DNA of 64,000 bases from Clostridia bacterium (lineage in GTDB: Bacteria; Bacillota; Clostridia; UBA1212; UBA1255): the NCBI GenBank assembly GCA_017560765.1, contig JAFZEI010000015.1, forward strand, positions 397-64,396, written 5' to 3'. Below the pieces are notes generated by a model. It made no database searches. It had not been told where the DNA came from and worked only from the letters and a program-made list of their open reading frames with translations. Position numbers and translations under genes: made by a program. Shown piece after piece: positions 12,101 through 34,674 of the stretch. How positions within the stretch are numbered: position 1 is the stretch's first letter; every line of letters starts with the position of its first letter.

Positions 12101-14543
12101 TTCTCCACACCGCACGTATCATACCATCTGCATGAACAAGGAAAGTGTGTGGAAGCAGTATAAAATTGCTTAGTACTCGCATGATTCTTGGTACGAATCT
12201 ACCTCCCGATGTGATTAACAGTGTACCTGTAACGATAAAAACCCATAAAAAGGCATCACGGCGAAGAAAAAGCATTCCTATCACAAAAACCATAAAAAGA
12301 GCTACAGGCAACAAACTTCTTAATAAATTCATTCCGATTTTAAAACGCGAGTAAAAATTAAGAGGATTATTTTTTAATACACCTTTTTCGTTTTCAAATC
12401 TTTTTCCCAAAAAAGGAAGTAACTGCCAATCTCCTCTTATCCACCTATGCTCTCTTTTAATATATCCACCGTAGCTGCGGGGAAAACTGTCATATAAATG
12501 AACATCCGAAACAAATGCAGTTCTTACAAAGGAACCTTCCAAAAGGTCGTGGCTTAATATACTGTTTCTTTTAAATCTCCCATCAAGAACACCATTGAAA
12601 ACATAAGGATCATACATGCCCTTTCCCGTATATATTCCCTCTGCGCAAACATCAAAATAAAAATCTGATGTTTTGCATCCGTATGAATCAAATCCCACTT
12701 CATCACTGTAAATTTTTTCAAAAATTGTTGTATTTTCTCTGTCGAGTCCTGATGGGGATATTGCAGGCTGCAAAAGCCCGTAACCCTTTGTCACCACGGG
12801 TTCACCTTTTACATAACTTATCTGCGGACGGTTTAAAGGATGATACATAATTTGCGCCATTTTGACAGCCGTATTTATTGGAATTACTGAGTCCGCATCT
12901 ACTGTCAGCACATAATTCACTTTTGGCAACTCACCTTTAATAATTGCTCTGTTAAGCTCAATAAGTGCACCTCTTTTTCTCTCATACCCCATCCATTTAT
13001 TGTCTTCTTTATAAAAATCTCTTTCCCTGACAAGTATACAAAAACGTTCACCTAACTTTTCTGTTTCTGTCTTTGCATACTGAATGAGTTCCCTGTCTTC
13101 CGGTGTGGTTTTTGTGGTACTTTCAGGTAAATCTGCCAACAAAGTATACCAAATCCCCTCTTGAGGATTTGCCCAATATGCCGCCTCCAATTGCTTAATC
13201 ATTTCGTCTACTCGTTTTTTTGAGGTTATCATACATGGCAAAACTATCATAATTTTACAATCCTCAGGTAATTTACCATGAAATTCCATTTCCGGCAGCG
13301 AAAACGGCATCTTCCTGTCCGTGTACATTTTCTGTATCAATGACAAAGAAATATTCATTGACGCAATTAATATAAGCAAAACGCAAAAGGCTCCTAAAAA
13401 TATTCCGAATATACCGTAAAGTTCCATAGAAAGCCCATACGCATAAACTCCGGGGCAAAAGGCCAAAACGGCAGAAGTAAACAAGAACATAACAAAAAAA
13501 GAGCCAAAGTCATTATGCTTTGTATAGTCCTCATATATAAAATCCCCTACATGAGCCTGCCGGTTTTGAGCCTTTTCCAATACTTCCAATGCATATTTTT
13601 CGGGAGAGGTATGTTTGCGTTTTGCACATACTTGTACAATACGCAAATATTCACGTCTTGACTTGGATGTCATTTTGTTAAAAATTCCCGTGGGATCTTT
13701 GCGTAAAATCTGCTCTGTAACACAAAGCTCAGACATAATTTTATCCCAATCCAGTGACGGCAAATCCCTTAGACTTTTTATGGCATTTCCCATAGAAACA
13801 CCTAATGAAATTCTCGTTCTGTGTTCTCTTTCTATCAGCTCTTCAACCGTTGTTCCTTTTGCTGCCAGCTTACCGGAAAGAGCAGTTCTTATTGTGTCAT
13901 TCTGTTCTAATTCAGCAGACAACCGAAGTACAGTTTCGGCAAAAACAGGCGTTATCATATCTGCATTATCAAACAAAACAGCTGCACTTCTCATGCGCTG
14001 CCCATTTTCCGTAGTGTAAGAAGAAAACTCTCTGAAAATTTTCTCGGCTGTTTTTCTGTCTTTGTATATTTTATCCGAAATTTTACAAATTTCTGCAATT
14101 CTCTTAATAAGTGCCACTTGTAGCATACATGGCAAAAACGTAAGAGACTCGGTATCTATTGGTCTTATTTTTTCATACGACGTTACAAAATCCAATATTT
14201 CCCGCTGCCCAATGCAGCCATCTGTATGCGAAGCAATTTCCGCCGCCAAATCATAAACAGGTAAAATTTTACGACTGTATTCTTCGTTTTTTACACTTTC
14301 GGCAGCCTCATTTACAACATGATAATTGTCAGCTATCCACTCGTCCGACGGAATACTTTGCAATTTTTGCGTATTTTCGCCATCTGACATAATTCTGCTG
14401 TATGTTTCATCTATACTTCCACTGCATTTTTCTATTGACGGAATGCTCCTTACGCCGTATCTGCCTTGCAAATGCTTTTCTCCGATATTTGCAGCATGCT
14501 TTATATATTCTTTTCCCGTTAATAATGTATCCTCAAGAATCAT
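9063..14543 (-). CDS. Cyclic beta-1,2-glucan synthase, N-terminal 1826 aa (N-terminal region, GT84-like glycosyltransferase, TM segments, glucoamylase-like/cyclization region)
   Basis: WIADNYHVVNE, WMGYERKRGALIELN, LTVDADS, GYGLLQPAI, SHDLLEGSF, REHRWIRGDWQLLPFL, SPTNIGFLIV, NWYDT...VDSGNLAACLLA and GISESGYNA. This is the same order as in Cgs/ChvB/NdvB. Confidence 0.85.
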   Translation of the reverse strand: MILEDTLLTGKEYIKHAANIGEKHLQGRYGVRSIPSIEKCSGSIDETYSRIMSDGENTQKLQSIPSDEWIADNYHVVNEAAESVKNEEYSRKILPVYDLAAEIASHTDGCIGQREILDFVTSYEKIRPIDTESLTFLPCMLQVALIKRIAEICKISDKIYKDRKTAEKIFREFSSYTTENGQRMRSAAVLFDNADMITPVFAETVLRLSAELEQNDTIRTALSGKLAAKGTTVEELIEREHRTRISLGVSMGNAIKSLRDLPSLDWDKIMSELCVTEQILRKDPTGIFNKMTSKSRREYLRIVQVCAKRKHTSPEKYALEVLEKAQNRQAHVGDFIYEDYTKHNDFGSFFVMFLFTSAVLAFCPGVYAYGLSMELYGIFGIFLGAFCVLLILIASMNISLSLIQKMYTDRKMPFSLPEMEFHGKLPEDCKIMIVLPCMITSKKRVDEMIKQLEAAYWANPQEGIWYTLLADLPESTTKTTPEDRELIQYAKTETEKLGERFCILVRERDFYKEDNKWMGYERKRGALIELNRAIIKGELPKVNYVLTVDADSVIPINTAVKMAQIMYHPLNRPQISYVKGEPVVTKGYGLLQPAISPSGLDRENTTIFEKIYSDEVGFDSYGCKTSDFYFDVCAEGIYTGKGMYDPYVFNGVLDGRFKRNSILSHDLLEGSFVRTAFVSDVHLYDSFPRSYGGYIKREHRWIRGDWQLLPFLGKRFENEKGVLKNNPLNFYSRFKIGMNLLRSLLPVALFMVFVIGMLFLRRDAFLWVFIVTGTLLITSGGRFVPRIMRVLSNFILLPHTFLVHADGMIRAVWRTFRSRQKMLEWVVSSDADKSIQNTLAYYNRTMWINFASAAVMAPFLFGIPSVLWILGPWGAYVCSKKTIKQRYGNKSKKLTKLQIKKFRINARKIWAFYYDYAVESDNFLPPDNVQFSPVYSVAHRTSPTNIGFLIVSTVIAQHFGYISQGEMLVRLEKIMNTLDRMDKWNGHIFNWYDTMSLQVLEPKYVSCVDSGNLAACLLAASSLINSINEVETTEDYIKKSAEGLYDTVCCLNEFAEKGNTAEIWVLEEFLNKDNYTKEEFLRVIQYYKELVAPVKNEKADAHSFRCNLKEMLVNAEKNITQGVFNLYEDKKILAARMKNMALAMDFGILYNDKHRHLCIGYNYSTGEFSNSFYDMIMSEARLTSYVAMAKGDVEAEHFSALARRCNEDGNVLLSWSGTVFEYVLPELFVPSPCGSALNKSIYEMLEIQQSLAGDKPWGISESGYNALDINMNYKYKAFGLKSLAVKRMHNDDAVVAPYASLMASSITPQAVFSNMELLSRLGTEGKYGYYEAIDFTPGRKGIVESFMAHHVGMALCGIANLLFDEMVSKGLSDMAMMQPVKVMLTEKFPKKAFKKHASKTKNELVRKEPSGEEKQQEQYVCISGHDAHVLSNGKYSVVINGQGNSYSSLCGMGIDVHREQILPEGIVFYLNGEMMKPVKCTVYSGSGEYLYLTKQEEVTQSICVATEDNAEVRIFKITNKGKNELYENITLYCRLMMDYPASYAAHPSYSGMFITTKAVKTESSSVCLLATRRKHKPTDNHVESYFYVDVSSESKKQVESIMYDTDVLSFKGRNGSSDFLLSGIAGTVLNPCFAVNLKLRVEAGENAVFSLVMGMNQNKETAFTEINSFANTQRIFELARTRCLIEKEHISFRKGDMQFFRSYASKLLYGRKYYDDKTKKHLWGYGISGDNPIITVLIRKVENAVRLERLVRMWCYYSFRGIKLDMVLAVFDNSDYVSPIHELADSLVQRAMWGCFPVRGDIFVIVPKDSNGAAPIIEASNLVFWL

Positions 14544-17400: not shown

Positions 17401-18582
17401 TTACGAAATAATTTCTGCAGAAATTTTTTTGCAAGAGAGCTTTTCGCAAGGTTCCCAAATCTGCTTTTCTGCCATAAGAGCTCTGATTTTTTGTATGATA
17501 TCGTTTTCTTCATTATTACACCATAAATATCTGTCAAAGCCTGCAATATACTCTATCATTGCTTCTTTGTTATCTCCGTCTACAAGTACAAGCACAGGTC
17601 TGTTAGTAGCAGCATAATGATAAAGCTTTCCCGGTATTTGCGTGCCTTTTTTATTAAGAACGCAAATATATAAATCAGTTTTCTTTTCAAGCTCACTTAT
17701 ATCGCCTCTTGGAAAAACATTTATATTATCTGTTTTTTCAAGTGCAAAATCTGCTTTTCCCATAACATTCAATATCAATTCATTCTTCATGCCGTTACAA
17801 GCATTATACAAAGGCATAATATCTCTGTTATTCGAAAAATAATCTCCGTAATAACCTACAGTAAATATATTATTTTTTGTTTCACGATAAATCTTCGTTT
17901 CGATGAACGGAGTAGGCACAAATATCATTTTGTTTGCAAACTCCGGTTGTATTCTCTGCTCTTCTTGTAGTGTGAACGGTGATGTATAAACAATTTTATC
18001 TGCCTTTGAAAAGAGCTTTTTTTCTTCTCTTTTTATTGCTTTTTTAGTGTATATTGTTTTTGATGCTGAGATATCTCCTACCAAAGGGTCTCCCCAATAC
18101 TGTATCCACTTTTTATAAGTTAAACCTTGCTCAACTAATTTTGCCATAGCTATATGGCTTGTCTTTGGATCGGAATCTGACATCACATACTCATATTCTT
18201 TTGACGGAAGTTTTTCTATAGAAACTTTTTTTGCGATATCATGTGTAAAATCGTAAAGTGTTGTATAATGATACAATTTTCTTGCTATTTTAAATAGTTT
18301 ATGTTTTATACCGCCTTTTGAACCGCTAAGCATTCCGTATACTGCTTGATTTGCACCGCCGTTTTTTTCTTCATCTGCATAAATTATATTGACTTGCTCC
18401 ATAAAACCATAGCCGGACAAATCCTTTAATACTATATTTGAATTTGCATGAATGCAGAACAAATCTACTTCATATCCGTTCTCAACGAATCCCTTTATTA
18501 CAGCCAATGTTCTAATCATGGATGATGAAGAAGCATTTGGTGCTGCCATTTTTACTACGAGAATTTTTTTGTTATTTTTCAT
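17401..18582 (-). CDS. GT-B-fold glycosyltransferase (family not assignable by eye)
   Basis: 393 aa. Two Rossmann-like halves, with C-terminal QIPGKLYHYAATNRPVLVL resembling GT4-type donor-binding helices. Confidence 0.55.
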   Translation of the reverse strand: MKNNKKILVVKMAAPNASSSSMIRTLAVIKGFVENGYEVDLFCIHANSNIVLKDLSGYGFMEQVNIIYADEEKNGGANQAVYGMLSGSKGGIKHKLFKIARKLYHYTTLYDFTHDIAKKVSIEKLPSKEYEYVMSDSDPKTSHIAMAKLVEQGLTYKKWIQYWGDPLVGDISASKTIYTKKAIKREEKKLFSKADKIVYTSPFTLQEEQRIQPEFANKMIFVPTPFIETKIYRETKNNIFTVGYYGDYFSNNRDIMPLYNACNGMKNELILNVMGKADFALEKTDNINVFPRGDISELEKKTDLYICVLNKKGTQIPGKLYHYAATNRPVLVLVDGDNKEAMIEYIAGFDRYLWCNNEENDIIQKIRALMAEKQIWEPCEKLSCKKISAEIIS

Positions 18583-23674: not shown

Positions 23675-24703
23675 TTACTTACCAATTAATATAGGCAACA
23701 CAAAAGTCCATAAGCCTGTTCTGCATAAAAAAAGGAAAAATCTGTATTTATAAGATAATTTTCTGTACATTTCCTTTTTATTCAAAACATCCCACGGCTC
23801 TTTATTTAAATATTCTTTTACAATATGTCTTTTTTCTTTTGATGTCTTAGGACACTTTTCAGAAAGCAATTCGCAAGATACAACAGTATAAAATTCCATT
23901 GCAAGATTTTTAGCATAACACAGTGTATTTTCTTTTATAAAAGCTGCATTTTCTTTTTTTAAGAGCTCTGCATATCTGCAAAGTATTTCTTCCCTATTTC
24001 CATAATATTTTCTCATGGAGGAACTTTCATATATCACATAGCAGTACCATATATCCAGAACGACACAAATATTACTGCACTTGTTTGTAAATTGCATATT
24101 CCATAAAACGTCTTCCCCTAAGGGTTGTCCCACAGGGAAAGGATTATTCTTCGCAACATCACTCTTTATGAGTCTTGCACATGGACCTCTGCCTATATAG
24201 CCATATTTTTTTACGTTTTTATATTCGGTCCGATTTGTCATCAAAAAGTAACTGCGCAAATCATCCATATTTTCTTTTGTATAAATATGATATTGTTTGT
24301 TTTCTTGTAACGGAATACTAACACTTTCCCCCGGTTTTGTTTTTGCAACTGCCGCAATCACCATGTCAGAATTTGTCTCTTTTATGATTTGAAGTCCCTC
24401 TGAAATTGCTTGAGGAAGCAGTACATCATCTGAATCCAAATACATAATATAGTCTCCGGTTGCAAGTTCTGTACCGTAATTTCTCGCAGCGCTTACTCCT
24501 TTGTTTTCACAATGAAAAACACGAATTCTATCATCGAGACTTTTTTGCAAATCACAAAAAGCAGCAGTTTCTTCATTTGAGCCATCGTCAATTATTATAA
24601 TTTCAACATCTTTGAAAGTCTGATTAAAAAGACTTTCCATGCAACGGTTCATATATTCACAATTAACATTGTATACAGGTATTATTACGCTGACAACAGC
24701 CAT
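23675..24703 (-). CDS. Family 2 glycosyltransferase
   Basis: VSVIIPVYN, IIIDDGS and YLDSDD motifs. Confidence 0.85.
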   Translation of the reverse strand: MAVVSVIIPVYNVNCEYMNRCMESLFNQTFKDVEIIIIDDGSNEETAAFCDLQKSLDDRIRVFHCENKGVSAARNYGTELATGDYIMYLDSDDVLLPQAISEGLQIIKETNSDMVIAAVAKTKPGESVSIPLQENKQYHIYTKENMDDLRSYFLMTNRTEYKNVKKYGYIGRGPCARLIKSDVAKNNPFPVGQPLGEDVLWNMQFTNKCSNICVVLDIWYCYVIYESSSMRKYYGNREEILCRYAELLKKENAAFIKENTLCYAKNLAMEFYTVVSCELLSEKCPKTSKEKRHIVKEYLNKEPWDVLNKKEMYRKLSYKYRFFLFLCRTGLWTFVLPILIGK

Positions 24704-24715
24704 ATTTTCCTCTTT

Positions 24716-25612
24716 TTAATACTTTATTCTAACGTAAATTTTAGCCAGCAAGCGTCTGGTACAAGCCAACATGTATCTCAAATATTGAAATACGCACACT
24801 TTTTTATCAAATACATACGAAACGATATTTACGCTTACTCCGCAATCCATAAGCTTTTTGTTCTTATTGTTATACTTAGTTCGTGAAAAAACCGTCATCC
24901 CGCTTTCTGAATATTTTTCAATTTCACCGGGAAACTTTTCTGTATACATAAACGGATATGAAATAAATAAAACACTGTTCTCTTTTAAAAACGATATTAC
25001 AGCATCAACATCATTTTCTCCCATATTGTATTCATATCTGGCACAATATATCCCTTTATATCCTAATTTTGAAACTATCGCTACAGTTTCTGTAGTATAT
25101 GCTTCTATCAGAAATCTTTCTTTTAATTCTGTTTTTTCTCCTATACACAACGAAAGTACATCAAGGAAATTCAAAATCTGTTCCTCTGTAAACATTCCGA
25201 ATAAATCGAGCATAAAAACAGTATCATTATACTCTGATAGCATATCAATAATATTTTGTAAGGATATAGGAGTAAGTCCCTTTGTGGATAAAGAAAAAAG
25301 AGTCTGTTTCATAAACCAGTCAAAGTCATATACATTGGGCTTTTCAAAAACCTCCATACGTCTCATTGACTTTTCATCAACAGTATGAGCAACGGCAACA
25401 TATTTGTTGTCAGTTGTTTTTCCGATGTCAAATTCAAAAACCTTAACACCTTTTTTATACCAACGCAAAAATGCCTCTTTTGTATTGGTTTGTCTTACAC
25501 CGGCAAAAGCACCGAGACCGTGCATACAATAATTAAATTTACCTTTTAATTCATGAACTGTCATCGTATTAAAGTTTTGCTGCCTCTGCAATTGCCAAAT
25601 CGTTTTCATCAT
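24716..25612 (-). CDS. GDPD/PI-PLC-like phosphodiesterase-fold protein
   Basis: HGLGAF...NTKEAF...VKVFEFDIGKTTDNKYVAVAH resembles the H-R/G, E-x-D and H-D pattern of glycerophosphodiester phosphodiesterases. The start is uncertain (ATG 25612/25609 or ATG 25564). Confidence 0.45.
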   Translation of the reverse strand: MMKTIWQLQRQQNFNTMTVHELKGKFNYCMHGLGAFAGVRQTNTKEAFLRWYKKGVKVFEFDIGKTTDNKYVAVAHTVDEKSMRRMEVFEKPNVYDFDWFMKQTLFSLSTKGLTPISLQNIIDMLSEYNDTVFMLDLFGMFTEEQILNFLDVLSLCIGEKTELKERFLIEAYTTETVAIVSKLGYKGIYCARYEYNMGENDVDAVISFLKENSVLFISYPFMYTEKFPGEIEKYSESGMTVFSRTKYNNKNKKLMDCGVSVNIVSYVFDKKVCVFQYLRYMLACTRRLLAKIYVRIKY

Positions 25613-26309
25613 CTATTTCATACCAACGGTCTGCATCAATTTTAACTATCCTTATATCATTGTTCCCGTAATATATCATTGCACCAAGAACAAGCTCATA
25701 GTAACTGTTTATATTTCCTATTTTTACATATAAATCAATCATAGGAAAATACTGGTTGCAAATAAAATTCTTACTAAACTTGTACACGTTTACTGTTTTA
25801 AGTGCCTCGTCATACGGGAATCCCTCATATTGGTCTCTTTTTATAACAAGGGAACTTGCCTTTATTCCATCGCAAGAAAGTATAACAGAGCCATTCATCG
25901 TTACAGGGTTATACTCACTTACCAATATATTACATTCCGCTTCTCCCGACAATATTTTTTCTATCAGATCATAACCATAATACAAATCACATTCAAGCAT
26001 AATGCAATCATCATGTATATAATCCCTCGCCAAAAAAAGAGAGTAGACATTGTTAGTTTTATCATAATCTGAATTTTCTACATATGTAATAGACATGCCC
26101 TTCCAGTTATTACCTATGTGTTTTATTATATATTCTGCCATATGGCCAACAACTATCACTACATTGTCAATTTTGCGCGTTGCAGATAAAAGATTTAAAG
26201 TATTTTCAAGAAGAGGAGTTCCCTTAACCGGAACCATACTTTTAGGCATATGATCTGTAAGCGGCCTAAGACGTTTACCAAAACCGGCAGCCAAAATAAT
26301 CGCTTGCAT
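25569..26309 (-). CDS. LicC-like nucleotidyl(cytidylyl)transferase
   Basis: MQAIILAAGFGKRLRPLT, TNNVYSL and WYEIDDENDL parallel the pneumococcal LicC motifs (AGLGTRLRPLT, YNNFYSL, YEIDSVQDY) as I recall them. Confidence 0.7.
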   Translation of the reverse strand: MQAIILAAGFGKRLRPLTDHMPKSMVPVKGTPLLENTLNLLSATRKIDNVVIVVGHMAEYIIKHIGNNWKGMSITYVENSDYDKTNNVYSLFLARDYIHDDCIMLECDLYYGYDLIEKILSGEAECNILVSEYNPVTMNGSVILSCDGIKASSLVIKRDQYEGFPYDEALKTVNVYKFSKNFICNQYFPMIDLYVKIGNINSYYELVLGAMIYYGNNDIRIVKIDADRWYEIDDENDLAIAEAAKL

Positions 26310-26327
26310 TTTTACTTACTCCTTTCT

Positions 26328-27212
26328 TTAATTAAAAAATTTTATGCACTTTTTAGGAGAATCCAACATATTAACCGGATGCTCAGGCTTTCTTCTTTCT
26401 TCAGACGGCAATAAAGAATAATCCCCATACATTTCTTTAAGAAATGTATCTGAATTAATTAATGCCATAAGTTTTTCTCCTCTAAATAAAACCTCGCCGT
26501 ATCCCTCGTCATAACTTTTTTTATTAAAACGTCTTCCGGTCTCGTACATTCTTGACGTATAACGTGTATATATTCCCGATGGTTTATGTTTCTTTATAGC
26601 AACCGCCTTGTCATTCAGCTCAAATATATCGCGAGGTCCGACAATTATTTTAGCAAAAAGACCGAGAATACTACTTACAATATCCCTTATCTTCTTATAC
26701 GTCTTGTTATATTTGTCGTGCCTTACATTTCTCACTTTAGTATTGTGAAATGCAGTTCTTAAAAATCCTGTTTTAAATTTTTTCCACTTAAAAACCAATT
26801 CGTTTGCAGGTTTTTCTTCATTAATAAATAAATCAATGTATATTTTTTTCTCCAACAACTCTTTCGTTGTTACCCTGTCAAGAAAATGAATTTTTAATAC
26901 TTTAATTTCTGAATCTTCTGCAAGTACTTGTCTAAGTTTAGTATATTCCGTCCTTGTCATCATTACGTCAGCATCATCATCCCAAGGAACGAAATCACCA
27001 TGTCGCATAGCTCCCAAAAGCGTTCCGTCAGCAAGAGAATACTTTAAATCATGCTCTTTGCAAAAACGGTCAAAAGATAATAGCAAGCGCATCATATCTT
27101 CATGTGCTTCTTTTAAGTTATACTTCTCCTCATAGCTGCCTACTTTACTGTAAGGATATGGGATTATATAGTTAATAATCGCTTTTGTCTTTGTGTCGGC
27201 GCCGCTCATCAA
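26328..27212 (-). CDS. licD: LicD-family phosphotransferase
   Basis: YSLADGTLLGAMRHGDFVPWDDDADVMM is the LicD signature. Confidence 0.85.
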   Translation of the reverse strand: MMSGADTKTKAIINYIIPYPYSKVGSYEEKYNLKEAHEDMMRLLLSFDRFCKEHDLKYSLADGTLLGAMRHGDFVPWDDDADVMMTRTEYTKLRQVLAEDSEIKVLKIHFLDRVTTKELLEKKIYIDLFINEEKPANELVFKWKKFKTGFLRTAFHNTKVRNVRHDKYNKTYKKIRDIVSSILGLFAKIIVGPRDIFELNDKAVAIKKHKPSGIYTRYTSRMYETGRRFNKKSYDEGYGEVLFRGEKLMALINSDTFLKEMYGDYSLLPSEERRKPEHPVNMLDSPKKCIKFFN

Positions 27213-27732
27213 ATGCCTTCCATCTTTCCTCTGCAGTTTCCAAATATATTAGAGAACGTCTTTTTTCTGCAAAATTTTCAAAAGTATCAATTTGCTTTGC
27301 GGGTATTCCTGCCCAGACAGCACCCGCCGGAATGTCTTTATTAATCAAACTATTAGCTCCGATTACAGTATCAGACCCAATTCTTACATTTCCCAATACA
27401 ATAGTTCCCGAACCAATAAAAACATTATCCTGTATATCTATACAACCCAGTTGCTCTTTAAATTCAGAATTATTTTTCTCTCCATGGTATTTGAAATTTA
27501 AAACACCATGAATCGCGTCATGTACAACAAACTTTACACCGGAAGCTACTTCAACATTATTTCCAAATGAAATAAGCTCGGAATGTAAAGGAACAAGCAT
27601 TGCAGGTAATCTTACATTTTTACCTACGTGATGAAAAATCTTCTTTTTCCTTGCGTAATTTCCTCTTTTAAGTTGATCAAAAAAAAGAAAAAATCTTATA
27701 GATCTGAACATTCTTTTTATATCCATTGCCAA
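27172..27732 (-). CDS. Left-handed beta-helix (hexapeptide) acetyltransferase, O-acetyltransferase-like
   Basis: Hexapeptide repeats IGSGTIVLGNVRIGSDTVIGANSLINKDIPAGAVWAGIPAK. There is no NeuD/PglD-type N-terminal domain. Confidence 0.75.
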   Translation of the reverse strand: MAMDIKRMFRSIRFFLFFDQLKRGNYARKKKIFHHVGKNVRLPAMLVPLHSELISFGNNVEVASGVKFVVHDAIHGVLNFKYHGEKNNSEFKEQLGCIDIQDNVFIGSGTIVLGNVRIGSDTVIGANSLINKDIPAGAVWAGIPAKQIDTFENFAEKRRSLIYLETAEERWKAFDERRRHKDKSDY

Positions 27733-27739
27733 ATATCTC

Positions 27740-28519
27740 CTAAATATACTCTCCGGCTGTTATTCTGAATGTACTGCCTGTCATCATGGCAGAGGAATCT
27801 GACATAAGGTAAATCAATGCCTCCACATAGTCATGTCTTTCCAACATTCTGCCCATCGGAATTGTGTTTGCCGCACGTTTTCTTAATTGTGCCTCAGTTT
27901 CTCCCTGCTGTTTTCTAAGGGCAACTTCACCCTCTGTTGGTGTCCATCCCAAAGTAAGATAGTTGCAACGTATCATTTCCGAAGCATAATTATGAGCAAT
28001 ATGTTCCATAAGAGTAATTAAAACGCCCTTGGAACAAGCGTATGCAGCTCTGTCCTTTTCGCCACCCCACGCATGAGCAGAACCTGTAAAAACTATGGAA
28101 CCTCCACCATTCATTCGCATATATTTTATTGCCTGTTGACAACAAAAAAAGCAAGCCCTGAAATTTACGTTCATTACCTGATTAAAAGTTTCTTCATCAC
28201 AAGTATCTAAAGGAGAAATCGGCGTTACACCTGCATAATTGAAAAAACCGTCTATCTTCCCAAACTTATTTGCAGCTTCGTCAAATAACTTCTTACAATC
28301 TTCTACTTTTTCCAGATCTGTATGGACAAAAATTGCTTCACTTCCATAAGTCTTGATAATTTTAATTGACTTACGAGCAGCGTCTTCATCTCTGCCACCT
28401 ATAACCACTTTAGCTCCGGCTTTTGCAAACTCTTCGGAAATTGTCTTTCCTACTCCTTTTGTACCACCGGACACTACTATAACTTTTTCTTTTAACGGTT
28501 TATTCATATCAAAAATCAA
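27740..28519 (-). CDS. Short-chain dehydrogenase/reductase
   Basis: SGGTKGVGK (TGxxxGxG-like), NYAG and catalytic YACSK (YxxxK). Confidence 0.85.
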   Translation of the reverse strand: MIFDMNKPLKEKVIVVSGGTKGVGKTISEEFAKAGAKVVIGGRDEDAARKSIKIIKTYGSEAIFVHTDLEKVEDCKKLFDEAANKFGKIDGFFNYAGVTPISPLDTCDEETFNQVMNVNFRACFFCCQQAIKYMRMNGGGSIVFTGSAHAWGGEKDRAAYACSKGVLITLMEHIAHNYASEMIRCNYLTLGWTPTEGEVALRKQQGETEAQLRKRAANTIPMGRMLERHDYVEALIYLMSDSSAMMTGSTFRITAGEYI

Positions 28520-28523
28520 CGCC

Positions 28524-29813
28524 TTATAATTCTAATGCTTTTTTTACATCAAAGCCTTTAAGCAACATGTCATTTCCGTTTGTATCAAAGACCTTAACAC
28601 AATCCATATATTCTCTAAGTTTTTCCCCCAACTCCTGTTTCGAATCACATACAATGTATAATCTTGTCATAACTTGCTTTTCATTACCTATCCATTCTTT
28701 AGGAATATTATCTCCTTCATATAAACGCTGTGCATTTGCAATAATATTTTTATCGTTTTTCCATTTATCCAAACCCTCAATTTTGCCAATGCGTCCCTCT
28801 TTGAGCAAAAACCAAAGTGTAGCAGCCCATTTTCCGCGCAAATAAGGATCATCCGAGGATAAAAGATCCATTTTTCCCTCAGACCCCGTCAAAGCAAATC
28901 TAATAAGCATTTCTCTTTGATCAAAACCTTGAATTTCTTTAATTAGCAGATGCGGTGCCTCTCCCTGAAGTCTAAAGCCTGTATCGTACACATAAAACTC
29001 ACCATTTTCATAAAAAGCAGAAAGCATGAGCACTCCATTACGTATTCCGATGTCCTTGAACATCATTACTGCATTCTCGTGCATTCTCTCAAAATATTCC
29101 TTCATATGCTTTGAGGGGTATGTGCCTCCAAGACACACACGGCTCAACCCGGGCTGTTCATCAGTAGTATATCTGTCATATATACAAGATGCGCTGCATT
29201 GTCCGTCCTTAAACGTATAATACATTCCCATGTCTTCACATTGCATGTATTTTTCTACTATAAAGCGTTTTTTCTTTGAGGCTTCCAAAGCTTTTTCAAC
29301 GGCAGGTTTTAAGTCTTCTTTACTGTAACAAACTGTCATTCCCACACCACCACCGTTATCTACAGGCTTTACCATTACAGGAAATACAATTTTATCAATA
29401 TCTCTGTCATTTAAATCTGCATCAAGATAAAACTCCGGTATTCCGTGAATGCCATACCTTTCACAAGTAGCTTTAAAAACATCTTTAAAGGCAAAAACAT
29501 CAACAATTTGCTGCGTGGCATAGCAAGGAAAACCTAAAGCATTACAAACTTTACAATAGGAAGGAACAAGAATATCAGCAACGCCTACCAGCACACCGTC
29601 AACTTTTTCTTCCATTGCCAAAGCAATAACACCGGGGACATCCATTCCGTCAACATCAAAACTTTTCCAGGAATACTTTTTTGCATCATCAGTATGGCGA
29701 CCGCTTGTAACAATGGTCTTAATTCCCATTTCGTTTGCCAACTTAACAAGTGCTGTTGTTTCAGGATTTCCTCCTAAAATCAATAACTTTTTACCTTCAA
29801 ATTCACTACTCAT
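28524..29813 (-). CDS. ATP-grasp ligase
   Basis: KKLLILGG pre-ATP-grasp region, FPVMVKPVDNGGGVGMTV and DTGFRLQGE. I prefer ATG at 29813 (AGGAGA 6 nt upstream) over the track start at 29828. Confidence 0.7.
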   Translation of the reverse strand: MSSEFEGKKLLILGGNPETTALVKLANEMGIKTIVTSGRHTDDAKKYSWKSFDVDGMDVPGVIALAMEEKVDGVLVGVADILVPSYCKVCNALGFPCYATQQIVDVFAFKDVFKATCERYGIHGIPEFYLDADLNDRDIDKIVFPVMVKPVDNGGGVGMTVCYSKEDLKPAVEKALEASKKKRFIVEKYMQCEDMGMYYTFKDGQCSASCIYDRYTTDEQPGLSRVCLGGTYPSKHMKEYFERMHENAVMMFKDIGIRNGVLMLSAFYENGEFYVYDTGFRLQGEAPHLLIKEIQGFDQREMLIRFALTGSEGKMDLLSSDDPYLRGKWAATLWFLLKEGRIGKIEGLDKWKNDKNIIANAQRLYEGDNIPKEWIGNEKQVMTRLYIVCDSKQELGEKLREYMDCVKVFDTNGNDMLLKGFDVKKALEL

Positions 29814-29842
29814 ATAAATTCTCCTCATTTATACAGTTTCTG

Positions 29843-30613
29843 TTATATAGTTATTCTTTCTCCCACAGTCATAAACATAAAATTATTATTTGGATATTGT
29901 TCTTTCATAATGTGGTAAAATTTCCCGGGATTTCCTCCATGGCACGGAAACATTCCGTAATGACTGGGAATAGTAATTTTGGGCTGTAACGCATTACTTA
30001 AATCTGCACAATCCTGTTCATTTAAATTGCCAAATGCTCCGTTTATCGGTGCAATCAACATATCTATTTCTCCAAAAGCCATATATTCTTCTGCTTTTTC
30101 AAGATGCAAACAAGTATCTCCGGCCATATATATTATTTTACCATCTACGGAAATTACCACTCCAAATGCATCCGGTGCGGCATCAGAATGATCGCAGCTT
30201 ACAAAATGCAAATCAAAACCATCCAAAGAGACGCTTTGTCCTGCTTTTACATAATGCACATTGCTTTCCTTCATTTGCAAACGTAAAACTTCTTCTCTGC
30301 ATCGTGTAGATGCAAAAAGCTTAGTATTGGGATTCGACATAAGCAGCGGTATAGAATCTATATCAAAATGGTCTACATGTGCATGAGTTGTTATCAAATA
30401 ATCAAATTCTATATCAAAAGCACCAAATAATTTAGGGAGCATTCTTTTAAAACCAATATTACCTTCAATTCGCTCTACACATTCCGACAAATACAAATCT
30501 ATGCCTAAAAGCTTCCCGTATTTATTTTTTATTATATACCCCGCCTGTCCCACATAAAAAAGATGTGTTTCTCCAAGCCGTGCAGACATAACATTTGTTA
30601 CGAAATCATTCAT
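29843..30613 (-). CDS. Metallo-beta-lactamase-fold hydrolase
   Basis: THAHVDHFD (HxHxDH), a later CDH, and GD/H motifs. Length 256 aa. Confidence 0.8.
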   Translation of the reverse strand: MNDFVTNVMSARLGETHLFYVGQAGYIIKNKYGKLLGIDLYLSECVERIEGNIGFKRMLPKLFGAFDIEFDYLITTHAHVDHFDIDSIPLLMSNPNTKLFASTRCREEVLRLQMKESNVHYVKAGQSVSLDGFDLHFVSCDHSDAAPDAFGVVISVDGKIIYMAGDTCLHLEKAEEYMAFGEIDMLIAPINGAFGNLNEQDCADLSNALQPKITIPSHYGMFPCHGGNPGKFYHIMKEQYPNNNFMFMTVGERITI

Positions 30614-30629
30614 AAACTATAATACCTAC

Positions 30630-31253
30630 CTATACAGTATTTTGTGACTCTACGTATTCAGCAAAATCCTCCATTGTAACAGAAGTTTCTGAGGATATTC
30701 CTTCCCGCTTAAAAACTGCAGCTACAGTTTTGAAAAGAATTTTTATATCCAATAAAAGGGAAACATTATTCACATAATATAAATCTAATTGAAATCGTTC
30801 CTCCCAAGACAGTAAGTTCCTGCCATTTGCCTGTGCATACCCTGTTAATCCCGGCCTTACATCATGTCTGTGTTTTTGTTCTTCTGAATAGTATGGCAAG
30901 TATTTTACCAATAAAGGCCTGGGGCCGACAATTGACATATCGCCTTTTAATATATTTATTAATTCCGGTAGCTCATCGAGAGAAGATGCTCTCAAAAACT
31001 TTCCATACGGGACCAATCTTTCTTCATCCGGTAAAAGATTATCGTTCGTATCTTTCTCGCAAGTCATTGTCCTGAATTTAATAAGCTTAAAAACCTTCTC
31101 TTTTTTACCCGGTCGTGGTTGTACAAAAAAAGGATTGCCTTTCATAACAATAGCTCCTGCGACAATCATGATTATTATAATCGGCGAAAAAACAATTAAG
31201 GCAGATAAAGAAAAAACAAAATCAAGTATACGTTTAATAAACTTTATGTACAT
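30630..31253 (-). CDS. Small monotopic phosphoglycosyl transferase (PglC/WbaP-C-terminal type, initiating sugar-phosphate transferase)
   Basis: One N-terminal hydrophobic helix, KLIKFRTM, DELPELINILKGDMSIVGPRP and RPGLTGYAQ. Confidence 0.9.
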   Translation of the reverse strand: MYIKFIKRILDFVFSLSALIVFSPIIIIMIVAGAIVMKGNPFFVQPRPGKKEKVFKLIKFRTMTCEKDTNDNLLPDEERLVPYGKFLRASSLDELPELINILKGDMSIVGPRPLLVKYLPYYSEEQKHRHDVRPGLTGYAQANGRNLLSWEERFQLDLYYVNNVSLLLDIKILFKTVAAVFKREGISSETSVTMEDFAEYVESQNTV

Positions 31254-31254
31254 A

Positions 31255-32442
31255 TTAAAAACAACTCTTTATTATCTCAATTACAACATCTTGCTCTTGC
31301 TCTGTCATTTTTATATCACTGGGCAAGCACAATCCCCTATTAAATATATCTTCACATACACAAAAATTATCAGCTTGTACAACACCACAATTTTTAAATA
31401 CAGGTTGCATATGCATCGGCTTCCATATTGGTCTCGACTCAACATTGTACGAAGCCAATTTTTCGCGAATTTCCTCAGGACAAGACTTTCCTTTTTCGCT
31501 AATATATGTAAATTCCTTTTCTTGGCGAATTTGCTTGCACATTGCTTCTTTATCAATAATTATGCAACTAAGCCAATAATTTGGTTCCATTCTTTTCTCA
31601 TCATAAGGATTCATTTTTAAAGGAAGATTCTTTAAACCTTCTTTGTATCTTTCATATATAGCCTTTTTGGCTTTTACATGCTCATCAAGATGTAATAATT
31701 GTCCTCTGCCTATCCCGGCAAGGACATTGCTTAATCGATAATTGTACCCCACAATCTCATGCTGATACCATGGAGCATCTTCTTTTGCTTGTGTAGACAT
31801 CTTTCTTGCCAAGTCTATGGCGTTTTTATCATTGCTTAATAACATTCCGCCGCTACTGCAAGTAATAATTTTGTTTCCGTTAAAGCTTATTACACCATAA
31901 TCTCCATAGTTGCCCGTTTGTACTCCTTCAAAAGTTGCACCTAAAGACTCCGCCGCATCTTCAATCAAAACAGCATTGTGTCTTTTGCAGATAGCTTTTA
32001 TTTCGTCTAATTTTGCAGGCACGCCATAAAGGTTCGTCACAATAACAGCCTTTGCATCACCGTAAATCTCAAAAGCTCTTTCAAGTGCTTTCGGATCCAT
32101 ATTCCATGTTTCTGTTTCGCTATCAATAAAAACAGGCTCTGCTGCTTCATAAACAACGGGATTTACCGTTGCAATAAAAGTCATATCCATACAAAAAACT
32201 TTATCTCCCGGTTTAACACCGGCTAATTTAACTGCTAAATGCAAAGATGTTGTTCCTGAAGACAATGCCAAAGAGTAATGACATCCTACTTTATCACAAA
32301 TTGCTTGCTCTAATTGATTTATATTTTCACCCAATGTGCTGACCCAATTTGTATCAAAAGCTTCATCAACAAAAAGTCGTTCCTCAGAATGCATCGTAGG
32401 TGTTGCTAGCCATATTTTTTTATCAAAGGGTTTAATTACCAT
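31255..32442 (-). CDS. DegT/DnrJ/EryC1-family sugar aminotransferase (PglE-like)
   Basis: Fold type I PLP enzyme. SFNGNKIITCSSGG (PLP-Lys context) and LCLPSD near the C-terminus. Confidence 0.9.
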   Translation of the reverse strand: MVIKPFDKKIWLATPTMHSEERLFVDEAFDTNWVSTLGENINQLEQAICDKVGCHYSLALSSGTTSLHLAVKLAGVKPGDKVFCMDMTFIATVNPVVYEAAEPVFIDSETETWNMDPKALERAFEIYGDAKAVIVTNLYGVPAKLDEIKAICKRHNAVLIEDAAESLGATFEGVQTGNYGDYGVISFNGNKIITCSSGGMLLSNDKNAIDLARKMSTQAKEDAPWYQHEIVGYNYRLSNVLAGIGRGQLLHLDEHVKAKKAIYERYKEGLKNLPLKMNPYDEKRMEPNYWLSCIIIDKEAMCKQIRQEKEFTYISEKGKSCPEEIREKLASYNVESRPIWKPMHMQPVFKNCGVVQADNFCVCEDIFNRGLCLPSDIKMTEQEQDVVIEIIKSCF

Positions 32443-32446
32443 TTTT

Positions 32447-34477
32447 TCACCTTACTATCTTAGTTTGCTCCTGACAAATCGAATCATTCTCAATAAAATT
32501 CGAGTTACCCGCAGGCTTATACGTAGTTACAATTTTCATAACCATTTCTCTTACATCATCATCTCTGTTTTCAAAGCACGCCTTCATTAAAAACTGTAGC
32601 TGATGCAAAAACTTATCCGTATCAAAATTTATAGGCTTTCCTATATGTATAAGTTTATTGGGAGTACTTGTTATACCCTCTTCAGCCATAAGCTTCTCCT
32701 CAAAAAGCTTCTCTCCCGGCCTTAAACCAATATATTCAATTTTAATATTAACATCAGGAATATAACCTGACAATTTAATTAAATTTCTCGCTAATGTATC
32801 AATTTTCATCGGAGAACCCATATCCAAAACAAAGATTTCTCCGCCCTTCGCATACGTTTCTGCCTGCAGAACGAGAGAGACAGCCTCCGGAATAGTCATA
32901 AAATAACGTATTATATCAGGATGTGTAACTTTTACAGGTCCACCGTTTGCAATTTGTTTTTTAAACAAAGGAATTACAGACCCGTTGCTGCCCAAAACAT
33001 TACCGAAGCGCACAGCAACAAATTCCGTATGAATCTCTCCGGGATGTTTACACGGCATTTTAAATTCCCCATCCTCATCCTCAACATGAGCCTGTATAAC
33101 AGGAAGCTCGTCCGCTCTGCCTTCCTTAATAAGCTTATCAAAAGACTGAATTATCATCTCGCACAAACGCTTGCTGGCGCCCATAATATTTGTTGGGTTA
33201 ACCGCCTTATCTGTCGAAATCAAAACAAAGCGTTTGCAACCATTCATAATAGCAGCATATGCTGTCTTGTATGTTCCGATGGCATTATTTTTTATAGCTT
33301 CGCAAGGGCTACTCTCCATAAGAGGAACATGCTTGTGTGCCGCAGCATGGAAGACAATTTCAGGCTTGTACTTATTAAAAACCTGGTTTAACTTACGGCT
33401 GTCTCTGACTGAGCCTATAAGCACCACAAGATTTAATCCGTAACACGTTTCCTTAAGCTCTTGCTCTATATCATAAGCATTGTTCTCATAAACATCAAAA
33501 ATTATCAACTGCTTAGGTGCATGTTTTGCAATCTGTCTGCACAACTCACTGCCAATTGAACCGCCGCCGCCTGTAACAAGAATTACCTTTCCGCTCAACT
33601 GACGGAAAATGTCACTCATTTCTACCTTTATCGGTTCTCTTCCCAAAAGATCTTCCACCGCAATATCCTTCATGGCAGCAACAGAAACATCACCGTTAAC
33701 AAGCTGGTATAAGCCGGGCAGATTTTTTACTTCGCATTTTGTGTTTTGGCAAATATTAAGTATTTCACTTTTGACTTCGGCAGAACAACTGGGAATAGCA
33801 AAATATATCTTCTCTATATTGTACTTTTCTACATTTACTAAAATATCGTCACGTCCGCCTACTATCGGTACGCCATCAAGATATCTTCCCCATTTACTGC
33901 TATCGTCATCAATTATACAGCAAACAACATCCTTGATTGTTGTTGCTCTTTTAACATCCTGTAAAATCATTTGTCCTGCAGAACCGGCACCAATCAGCAT
34001 AACTTTTGAAAAACCTGCCCCTGAGGTATTTTTTATTGCACTGTTTCTTTGTAACAGAATAAAACGATATCCAAAACGCACTGTAATCAAGAAAACAAAC
34101 TGTATTATTGAGCCAAATAAATGATATGAAAAAATCATTTGTTTAAAAATAACTGTAATTCCTATCCAGTGAGCAACAGAAGTAATAATTGATGCCAATA
34201 AAATTCTGGAAAACTCATTAAAACTTGCATATCTCCACAAGCTGCGATAAAGTCTGAGCAAAAAGAAAATAACAATGCAAAAGACAGAATATATCGGTGC
34301 AAATTTTGCAAACGGTTCTAAATATCCACTGCTTTCTACCAAAGAAAACTTACAGTCAAATCTAAACCACAATCCTAAAAAATATGATAAATTAACAGCA
34401 ATCACATCATAAAAAACAAGTAATATCGCTGCATAATTAATAGATTTTTTTTGTTCAATCGATTTGTTGTTATTCAT
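32447..34477 (-). CDS. Membrane-bound UDP-GlcNAc 4,6-dehydratase (CapD/PglF-like)
   Basis: Four N-terminal TM helices, LIGAGSAGQ, LVTGGGGSIGSEL and STDKAVNPTNIMGASKR. The start is set at ATG 34477 (AAGGAGG 6 nt upstream). The track ORF's extra 57 codons lack support. Confidence 0.9.
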   Translation of the reverse strand: MNNNKSIEQKKSINYAAILLVFYDVIAVNLSYFLGLWFRFDCKFSLVESSGYLEPFAKFAPIYSVFCIVIFFLLRLYRSLWRYASFNEFSRILLASIITSVAHWIGITVIFKQMIFSYHLFGSIIQFVFLITVRFGYRFILLQRNSAIKNTSGAGFSKVMLIGAGSAGQMILQDVKRATTIKDVVCCIIDDDSSKWGRYLDGVPIVGGRDDILVNVEKYNIEKIYFAIPSCSAEVKSEILNICQNTKCEVKNLPGLYQLVNGDVSVAAMKDIAVEDLLGREPIKVEMSDIFRQLSGKVILVTGGGGSIGSELCRQIAKHAPKQLIIFDVYENNAYDIEQELKETCYGLNLVVLIGSVRDSRKLNQVFNKYKPEIVFHAAAHKHVPLMESSPCEAIKNNAIGTYKTAYAAIMNGCKRFVLISTDKAVNPTNIMGASKRLCEMIIQSFDKLIKEGRADELPVIQAHVEDEDGEFKMPCKHPGEIHTEFVAVRFGNVLGSNGSVIPLFKKQIANGGPVKVTHPDIIRYFMTIPEAVSLVLQAETYAKGGEIFVLDMGSPMKIDTLARNLIKLSGYIPDVNIKIEYIGLRPGEKLFEEKLMAEEGITSTPNKLIHIGKPINFDTDKFLHQLQFLMKACFENRDDDVREMVMKIVTTYKPAGNSNFIENDSICQEQTKIVR

Positions 34478-34674
34478 CTTTTGCCTCCTTTTCTTTAATA
34501 CTTTTTTATTTCTTTTTTGTATGCTTCGCCAACCTAAACATATATTAATTTTGTTTAGATGCTTTTGTAAAAAATATATCTTTTTGTTGTCTGAAACGAG
34601 CGTAAAGCTACGATTTAAGACAAAACAAAAGTCATACAAAAAAAGCACAAACAGAACAAACCATTCGCTGTTTA

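Follow-up and report, generated by a model that had tools for sequence, protein, structure and literature searches.

How is an amino sugar completed when a polysaccharide operon carries PglF-, PglE- and PglC-like genes and the N-acetyltransferase PglD is missing? This question is raised by a Wzx/Wzy-type polysaccharide operon in a 64,000-nucleotide (64-kb) stretch of a Clostridia bacterium genome (assembly GCA_017560765.1, contig JAFZEI010000015.1, positions 397 to 64,396), hereafter called the window. Behind the three Pgl-like genes, the region 27740-30613 on the minus strand is filled exactly by three intact open reading frames (ORFs), which code for a metallo-beta-lactamase (MBL)-fold hydrolase, an ATP-grasp ligase and a classical short-chain dehydrogenase/reductase (SDR). 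We find that this triad is a real unit that has spread horizontally in gut and rumen bacteria. We further propose a model to which we give about as much belief as doubt, in which the six genes between positions 34648 and 27740 act as one cassette for the synthesis and lipid attachment of a non-standard initiating sugar that bears an N-(hydroxyacyl) group.

Conservation of the triad and its neighbours

The genes for the MBL-fold metallo-hydrolase (29843..30613, 256 amino acids), the ATP-grasp carboxylate-amine ligase (28524..29828, 434 amino acids) and the classical SDR (27740..28519, 259 amino acids) are separated by gaps of 14 and 4 nt, which bears out the original prediction of three tightly coupled genes at this position. 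Homologues of the ligase number more than 3000, of which the best 120 are 78-96% identical, and an exhaustive search at E<1e-30 resolved the ligase family into 455 clusters (representatives at 50% identity). Profile searches seeded with distant and Bacillaceae members of the family returned no B. cereus protein among the matches, and a plasmid tblastn search gave distant ATP-grasp matches only, none of them from Bacillus. By scanning one genome per species with the ATP-grasp ligase, relatives were found in 302 species-level genomes of the Bacillota, Bacteroidota, Spirochaetota and Synergistota, with an identity of approximately 77% between phyla. The best 80 of these 302 relatives are 72-81% identical and their loci were analysed; the hosts belong to the Lachnospiraceae, Ruminococcus, Eubacterium, Bacteroidales, Rikenellaceae, Muribaculaceae, Sphaerochaetaceae and Synergistaceae. 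The order MBL-ligase-SDR and the common strand are kept in essentially all of these 80 loci, across four phyla: the MBL gene directly precedes the ligase gene (position -1) in 57 loci, with fusions of the two elsewhere, and the SDR gene is located at +1 in 74 of 78 loci. Median pairwise identities across loci are 0.77 for the ligase, 0.76 for the SDR and 0.59 for the MBL protein. Among the best 120 homologues, four proteins of approximately 690 amino acids (P0012, P0039, P0054 and P0087) are MBL-ATP-grasp fusions, with such fusions seen in loci L017, L029 and L034, and an ATP-grasp-SDR fusion (P0129) has an SDR half that is clearly orthologous to the window SDR. Other MBL-ATP-grasp fusions among the 455 clusters carry a different, ComEC-like MBL domain. 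The module is under strong constraint and must evidently have crossed from phylum to phylum.

Upstream of the triad, the operon begins with a gene for a PglF/CapD-like membrane-anchored UDP-HexNAc 4,6-dehydratase (32447..34648; Pfam Polysacc_synt_2, E = 4.6e-114; CoA_binding_3, 3.2e-12), followed by genes for a DegT-family (PglE/Pat-like) sugar 4-aminotransferase (31255..32442; DegT_DnrJ_EryC1, 1.4e-88) and a small monotopic phosphoglycosyl transferase of the PglC-like type (30630..31253; Bac_transf, 4.5e-61). All three are encoded on the minus strand, and the intergenic gaps along the six genes from the PglF-like gene to the SDR gene are 4, 1, 16, 14 and 4 nt. The opening of the operon is therefore as originally predicted, with Pfam E-values from 1e-61 to 1e-114 that speak at family level only: matches of the dehydratase to the PseB and FnlA models are under their cut-offs, and the aminotransferase stays under every NCBIfam equivalog cut-off (LegC, 341 bits versus 420; PseC, 224 versus 423), so that a gluco (bacillosamine) and a galacto (FucNAc4N/AAT) sugar are not distinguishable. 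The dehydratase ORF is 733 amino acids long when read from a GTG codon, with about 56 residues preceding the methionine of MNNNKSIEQKK; because its homologues have only 608-660 amino acids, the true start is probably internal.

Neighbouring genes were counted by phmmer over all ORFs in a full-flank set of 43 loci with at least 8 kb on each side. A DegT aminotransferase is encoded in 38 of these loci, as a raw count rather than an enrichment over comparable polysaccharide loci, and a DegT protein or a PIG-L de-N-acetylase in 39. A PglC-like transferase is present in 28, and a GT2 glycosyltransferase with an extra C-terminal domain (GT2x) in 36. In 29 other loci, the triad is joined by a high-scoring PglE-like match (phmmer, at least 300 bits), for which the median pairwise identity is 0.66, and the corresponding values are 0.54 for the PglC-like protein and 0.58 for GT2x. 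All three of these partners behave like orthologues that are inherited together with the triad. Eubacterium coprostanoligenes ATCC 51222 and metagenomes contain the identical six-gene block CapD-DegT-Bac_transf-MBL-ligase-SDR; the proximity to PglFEC-like genes, for which a survey of other genomes had been suggested, is not confined to the window. The downstream glycosyltransferases of the E. coprostanoligenes-type loci are entirely different from those of the window, and the 21 kb examined there contain no gene for a left-handed beta-helix (LbH), LicD or UGDH-family protein. In a second class of loci, the triad adjoins RmlA and RmlB, both over the NCBIfam cut-offs, and a DesI-like 4-aminotransferase; this is a dTDP route to a 4-amino-4,6-dideoxyhexose, alternative to the UDP-HexNAc route.

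GT2x is a protein of 408 amino acids (e.g. L067, 7998-9224) that is encoded directly upstream of the MBL protein in L007, L013, L019 and others, and at -2 to the ligase in 44 loci. Its C-terminal region of approximately 100 residues has no Pfam or PDB match and looks Rossmann-like by eye. GT2x is absent from the window, where a different GT2 protein of 342 amino acids is encoded at 23675-24703. A PIG-L de-N-acetylase gene lies directly upstream of GT2x and the triad, mostly at -3, in L010, L018, L033, L037, L041, L042, L057 and L072, and is the sole amine-generating enzyme seen in L010 and L042, which suggests a de-N-acetylated hexosamine as an alternative acceptor. More distant members of the ligase family (30-40% identical; Halalkalibacterium halodurans, Methanococcus and Culturomica) also adjoin DegT and nucleotide-sugar genes, with FemAB-like proteins, WbqC or extended SDRs as partners. 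In the distant loci L085, L086 and L087, the ligase gene sits next to DegT, between the gene for an unannotated protein of 316-368 amino acids, a FemAB-like or a WbqC protein and that for an extended SDR. The wider family appears to consist of general amino-sugar N-acylating ligases with interchangeable partners. The common denominator of the triad loci is a sugar amine and not a uronic acid.

A PglD/NeuD-type N-acetyltransferase, that is an LbH protein with an N-terminal Rossmann-like domain, was not found within the 64-kb window, in agreement with the original prediction. The sole LbH protein of the window is the product of the gene that follows the triad (27172..27732, minus strand, 186 amino acids; Pfam Hexapep), an acyltransferase of the galactoside/maltose O-acetyltransferase type. 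Its residues 35-153 align to GAT/MAT O-acetyltransferases among the PDB matches, as had been expected from its O-acetyltransferase-like appearance, and the NeuD/PglD model is matched at its C-terminal ~50 positions only (152-202). We therefore rejected the idea that this protein is a hidden PglD. The LbH gene is found at +2 of the ligase gene in 9 loci and in 15 of the 43 full-flank loci, which places it outside the core module; possibly it is an optional accessory that O-acetylates the same sugar.

Protein classes and a proposed acylation pathway

By its modelled fold, the 434-amino-acid protein is a carboxylate-amine ligase (Pfam CPSase_L_D2, E = 6.8e-11; Dala_Dala_lig_C, 1e-9). The AlphaFold2 (AF2) model (pLDDT 92) gave the L-amino acid ligase BL00235 (3VOT) as best Foldseek match, with TM-scores of 0.78-0.84, ahead of biotin carboxylases. 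It has a three-domain ATP-grasp architecture with a C-terminal LAL-type subdomain, and more distant family members match Pfam LAL_C2. Whereas this architecture is shared with L-amino-acid ligases such as BL00235 and YwfE/BacD, the identity to them is 14-18%, and the context in the window is one of nucleotide sugars and polysaccharide rather than of a dipeptide antibiotic. Database names that present the protein as a biotin carboxylase or carbamoyl-phosphate synthetase were rejected: NCBIfam models that demand 600-1000 bits gave 25-45, the specific domains Biotin_carb_N and Biotin_carb_C were not detected with Pfam, and no biotin carboxyl carrier protein (BCCP) or carboxyltransferase partner is encoded at the window locus.

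The translated SDR (Pfam adh_short_C2, E = 2.5e-46; adh_short, 4.9e-44) contains the glycine-rich motif SGGTKGVG as well as GGRDED and YACSK, and thus has the TGxxxGxG-type motif and the catalytic Ser-Tyr-Lys of a classical SDR. In the coenzyme classification of classical SDRs, a lysine in the glycine-rich motif together with an arginine after beta-2 indicates NADP(H). Both residues are present in the window protein, and from these NADP(H)-type motifs we infer a biosynthetic reductase. Its matches to generic SDR models include sugar 1-dehydrogenases and 3-hydroxybutyrate dehydrogenase. The MBL protein (Pfam Lactamase_B_3, E = 7.9e-13; Lactamase_B_2, 6.6e-12) has an intact HxHxDH motif (HAHVDHF) and an AF2 model with a pLDDT of 80, for which the top Foldseek match is the L-ascorbate-6-phosphate lactonase UlaG (2WYL/2WYM, TM-scores 0.74-0.79). 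The next structural neighbours are UPF0173 proteins (7E3V/7E3W), TM1162, Igni18 and NAPE-PLD, and one UPF0173 structure has cAMP bound. The likeness to UlaG and UPF0173 lies in the fold and the HxHxDH motif and is structural only, since all scores against curated families are below threshold (PRK00685, 67 bits versus a cut-off of 144; UlaG model, 27 versus 306, E = 1.8e-6) and, unlike UlaG, the window protein has no ascorbate-utilisation context. The papers found on UPF0173 assign no function to that family. With UlaG and the UPF0173 hydrolases as nearest neighbours, a glyoxalase-II or PqsE-type thioesterase was rejected. The structural comparison thus upheld the ATP-grasp ligase of the original prediction and not its thioesterase-like MBL enzyme. 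Candidate roles for the MBL protein are the opening of a lactone or hydroxy-lactam, the salvage of a cyclised acyl-phosphate by-product, proofreading, or a phosphodiesterase-type activity; this is the weakest part of our model.

A precedent for the ligase is provided by Pyl from Bacillus cereus. Pyl is an ATP-grasp enzyme that, in the UDP-yelosamine pathway together with Pat, ligates 2-oxoglutarate to UDP-4-amino-FucNAc, and the genes for Pat and Pyl adjoin a small phosphoglycosyl transferase gene. The mature B. cereus polymer has the structure ->6)Gal(a1-2)(2-R-hydroxyglutar-5-ylamido)Fuc2NAc4N(a1-6)GlcNAc(b1->, which implies that the keto group is reduced and that the resulting hydroxyl is then glycosylated. 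The O-polysaccharide of Tenacibaculum maritimum contains 2-acetamido-3-O-acetyl-4-(2-hydroxyglutar-5-ylamido)-2,4,6-trideoxyglucose, linked via the hydroxy acid, and the same review describes an O-glycosylated, amide-linked malic acid in Flavobacterium psychrophilum. As Pyl adds 2-oxoglutarate and the mature polymers carry 2-hydroxyglutaryl groups, a keto-to-hydroxy reduction is needed. We found no reductase for this step in the listed papers on yelosamine, only Pat and Pyl are named in the available papers on the B. cereus pathway, and the paper on the T. maritimum O-antigen cluster makes no mention of ATP-grasp, MBL or SDR proteins.

The window shares with the Pyl system an ATP-grasp ligase beside a CapD-type dehydratase, a DegT 4-aminotransferase and a small phosphoglycosyl transferase; in both, the ligase would replace PglD, and the product would be an N4-acylated 4-amino-4,6-dideoxy-HexNAc that starts a polysaccharide. 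The ligase of the triad differs in that it is always paired with, and at times fused to, an MBL protein and an NADP-type SDR. The dehydratase, aminotransferase and transferase families and their gene order are also those of the PglF-PglE-PglD-PglC pathway to UDP-diNAcBac in Campylobacter and Neisseria, a likeness at family level only, whereas the window has an O-acetyltransferase-type protein as its sole LbH protein where that pathway has a PglD/NeuD-type enzyme. By analogy, the cassette looks like a yelosamine-type pathway with two additions, the NADP-type reductase and the MBL hydrolase. ATP-grasp N-acylation of 4-amino sugars is known, and what is new are the two uncharacterised obligatory partners.

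On this basis, we propose that the PglF-like dehydratase and the DegT aminotransferase would turn UDP-HexNAc into UDP-4-amino-4,6-dideoxy-HexNAc. Rather than being acetylated by a PglD-type enzyme, the 4-amino group would receive, in amide linkage, a free carboxylic acid that the ATP-grasp ligase activates to the acyl phosphate. That the ligase acylates a sugar amine is likely in our view, with the acceptor suggested by gene context, the distant family members and analogy to Pyl. The NADP-type SDR would reduce a keto group of the acyl residue to a hydroxyl, after or just before ligation, to give an N-(hydroxyacyl) sugar. Whether the SDR acts on the acyl group at all, for example from 2-oxo to 2-hydroxy, is an evenly balanced call. 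The PglC-like transferase would load the sugar-1-phosphate, whether complete or still in part unfinished, onto undecaprenyl phosphate. In most other genomes, GT2x may attach a further sugar to the modified residue or to its new hydroxyl. The MBL protein would open a cyclic acid or acylated product (lactone or hydroxy-lactam) or clear a dead-end by-product; the ring-opening role is a doubtful assignment.

DegT sugar aminotransferases release 2-oxoglutarate as a co-product. Together with the chemical precedent, this makes 2-oxoglutarate the most economical acid, and as a candidate it would give a 2-hydroxyglutar-5-ylamido sugar like those of B. cereus and T. maritimum. We name 2-oxoglutarate or 2-hydroxyglutarate tentatively, as a choice that is possible rather than probable; oxaloacetate (giving malyl), pyruvate (lactyl), acetoacetate (3-hydroxybutyryl) and an amino acid are further candidates. 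One might further speculate, as a long shot, that a three-enzyme assembly adds a hydroxy-dicarboxylic acid, with GT2x glycosylating the hydroxyl of the acid and the MBL protein opening a cyclised 2-oxoglutaramyl group (hydroxy-lactam) for reduction.

Alternative roles of the triad

The SDR and the MBL protein could instead supply the acid, the former by reducing a free keto acid or oxidising a hemiacetal and the latter by hydrolysing a lactone or thioester, so that the ligase joins a ready-made hydroxy acid to the 4-amino group. The gene and fusion order MBL, ligase, SDR would fit such a sequence, as would the structural proximity of the MBL protein to the UlaG lactonase and the sugar 1-dehydrogenases and 3-hydroxybutyrate dehydrogenase among the generic SDR matches. 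However, the domain order of a fusion is no proof of reaction order, and Pyl takes a keto acid directly, to judge from the title of the paper on it, which names a 2-oxoglutarate amide product. Hydrolysis of a thioester followed by re-activation with ATP would be wasteful, and the MBL protein is not of the glyoxalase-II/thioesterase type. We regard this acid supply as unlikely. The original prediction had coupled it to amide formation on the 4-amino group: the amide is supported by gene context, distant members and the Pyl precedent, whereas the supply of a 3-hydroxyacyl group by the SDR and a thioesterase-like MBL enzyme is not supported, given the UlaG/UPF0173-like structure of the MBL protein. 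It is also conceivable that the ligase adds an amino acid such as alanine, serine or glutamate to the sugar amine and that the SDR and MBL proteins tailor the product separately. Here, the best structural match, an L-amino-acid ligase, and the distant members with LAL_C2 that are fused to or found beside FemAB-like and GNAT domains would be explained, but an obligatory reductase and hydrolase, at times fused and equally conserved, have no obvious job on a plain amino acid, and we consider this quite unlikely.

The second hypothesis of the original prediction was amidation of a uronic acid: the carboxylate of a GlcA or ManNAcA residue of the repeat unit would be activated by the ATP-grasp enzyme and coupled to an amine. 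In the HS:2 capsule of Campylobacter jejuni, an ATP-grasp amidoligase (the C-terminal domain of Cj1438) reportedly forms an amide in the surface polysaccharide in this manner, with the sugar giving the carboxylate and a small amine being added. The window operon does encode a UGDH-family protein, a UDP-ManNAc-dehydrogenase-like protein and a 2-epimerase. Only 4 loci of the 43 in the full-flank set, however, have a UGDH-family gene, which makes uronic-acid amidation unlikely, and the six-gene block of the E. coprostanoligenes type has none in its 21-kb stretch. Moreover, the triad is not accompanied by enzymes that supply an amine for coupling and, unlike the C. jejuni amidoligase, has conserved partners that generate a sugar amine. 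We therefore disfavour this hypothesis as highly improbable. Very unlikely as well is a role in a phospho-substituent, with the triad preparing an alcohol or acid that LicD and a cytidylyltransferase would join via a phosphodiester and the MBL protein acting as a phosphodiesterase. A LicD gene is found at +2 or +3 in 47 loci and in 33 of the 43 full-flank loci; it is followed by an NTP_transferase gene in the window, it lies with the triad and GT2x beside a dlt operon in three genomes without DegT, and the MBL protein has phosphodiesterase-like structural neighbours. Against this, the LicD neighbours are heterogeneous, with a median identity of 0.26 compared with 0.77 for the ligase, which indicates that LicD is not co-inherited with the triad and led us to reject it as an obligate partner. 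Ten of the 43 loci in the full-flank set, among them those of the E. coprostanoligenes type, have no LicD gene, several LicD genes come with their own TarI/IspD-type cytidylyltransferase gene, and an ATP-grasp ligase has no known role in CDP-alcohol synthesis.

Several points also weigh against the N-(hydroxyacyl) cassette that we favour. The frequent company of DegT is a raw count, as given above. Ligases that are approximately 75% identical are found beside both UDP- and dTDP-sugar routes, which would require a relaxed nucleotide specificity or a lipid-linked acceptor. The ring-opening role of the MBL protein is a guess, because its relatives include, besides the lactonase, phosphodiesterase-like proteins, namely a cAMP-bound UPF0173 protein, NAPE-PLD and the ComEC-type domains of distant fusions. 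Pyl (Bc5272, NP_834935.1) is listed with a mass of 41.9 kDa and the window ligase, with 434 amino acids, has one of approximately 49 kDa; as the masses differ, the two are probably not orthologues, and their likeness is one of gene context and of proposed function. Finally, neither a DegT nor a PIG-L gene lies within 10 kb in four of the 43 loci in the full-flank set. Three of these four belong to related Lachnospiraceae, with pyruvate phosphate dikinase on one side of GT2x-MBL-ligase-SDR-LicD and a dlt operon on the other, and the fourth is a Synergistaceae contig.

The Lachnospiraceae arrangement was seen in loci L016, L020, L025 and L026, where the GT2x-MBL-ligase-SDR-LicD block is followed by a gene for an Ig-like surface protein and a dlt-like operon (AMP-binding DltA, a carrier of 79 amino acids, MBOAT-family DltB and a DltD-like protein). 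In L020, L025 and L026 the block is located just downstream of pyruvate phosphate dikinase. None of the four loci has DegT or PglC within 10 kb, and this context is not accounted for by the amino-sugar model.

Accessory genes of the operon and biological meaning

Downstream of the LbH gene, the operon codes for LicD, NTP_transferase, GDPD-like, GT2, Wzy, Wzx, UDP-ManNAc-dehydrogenase-like, 2-epimerase and UGDH-family proteins. The LicD gene (26328-27212), the NTP_transferase gene (25569-26309) and a gene for a 298-amino-acid protein with a faint match to Pfam GDPD (24716-25612; E=0.049) form a sub-module at 24716-27212 on the minus strand, which recurs in six related loci (cluster c23) and is probably responsible for a phospho-alcohol decoration. 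One idea is that the GDPD-like protein frees glycerol phosphate, which is converted to a CDP-alcohol and then handed on by LicD. Between the 2-epimerase and UGDH-family genes, a protein of 393 amino acids is encoded at 17401-18582 on the minus strand, whose only Pfam match is a faint one to Glyco_trans_1_4 (E=0.039); it is probably a divergent GT-B glycosyltransferase. At 6923-14543 on the minus strand, an ORF of 1826 amino acids with GT2-like, glucoamylase-like and GH94 supersandwich regions overlaps by 68 nt with a 735-amino-acid ORF for a GH94 catalytic domain. The pair resembles a cyclic beta-1,2-glucan synthase/phosphorylase in two frames and could be a true two-gene layout or a frameshift. 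As for the LbH protein, we speculate that its position beside the triad would suit a 3-O-acetylated sugar like that of T. maritimum.

Taken together, the identities of the genes, their colinearity and fusions, their association with enzymes that generate amines and the structural classes of the proteins are established here, and the acceptor, the acid, the step order and the part played by the MBL protein are inferred. If the proposed N-(hydroxyacyl) pathway is correct, the classical SDR would be a candidate enzyme type for the conversion of a 2-oxoacyl to a hydroxyacyl amide that is seen in B. cereus and Tenacibaculum, and an MBL-fold enzyme would join the proteins involved in amino-sugar N-acylation. 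Cultured carriers of the module include E. coprostanoligenes ATCC 51222 (L008), Ruminococcus flavefaciens ATCC 19208 (L062), Sporofaciens musculi WCA-9-b2 (L054) and, of the class without DegT, Lachnospiraceae bacterium AC2029 (L025), which makes the prediction directly testable. In gut and rumen bacteria, the pathway would be common and able to move horizontally. A hydroxylated, acidic N-acyl substituent on the sugar that opens the repeat unit would alter charge and epitope, which matters for recognition by the immune system, for phage receptors and for the specificity of small phosphoglycosyl transferases. Should GT2x glycosylate the hydroxyl of the acid, a component other than a sugar would become a linker within the glycan backbone of many commensals of gut and rumen.

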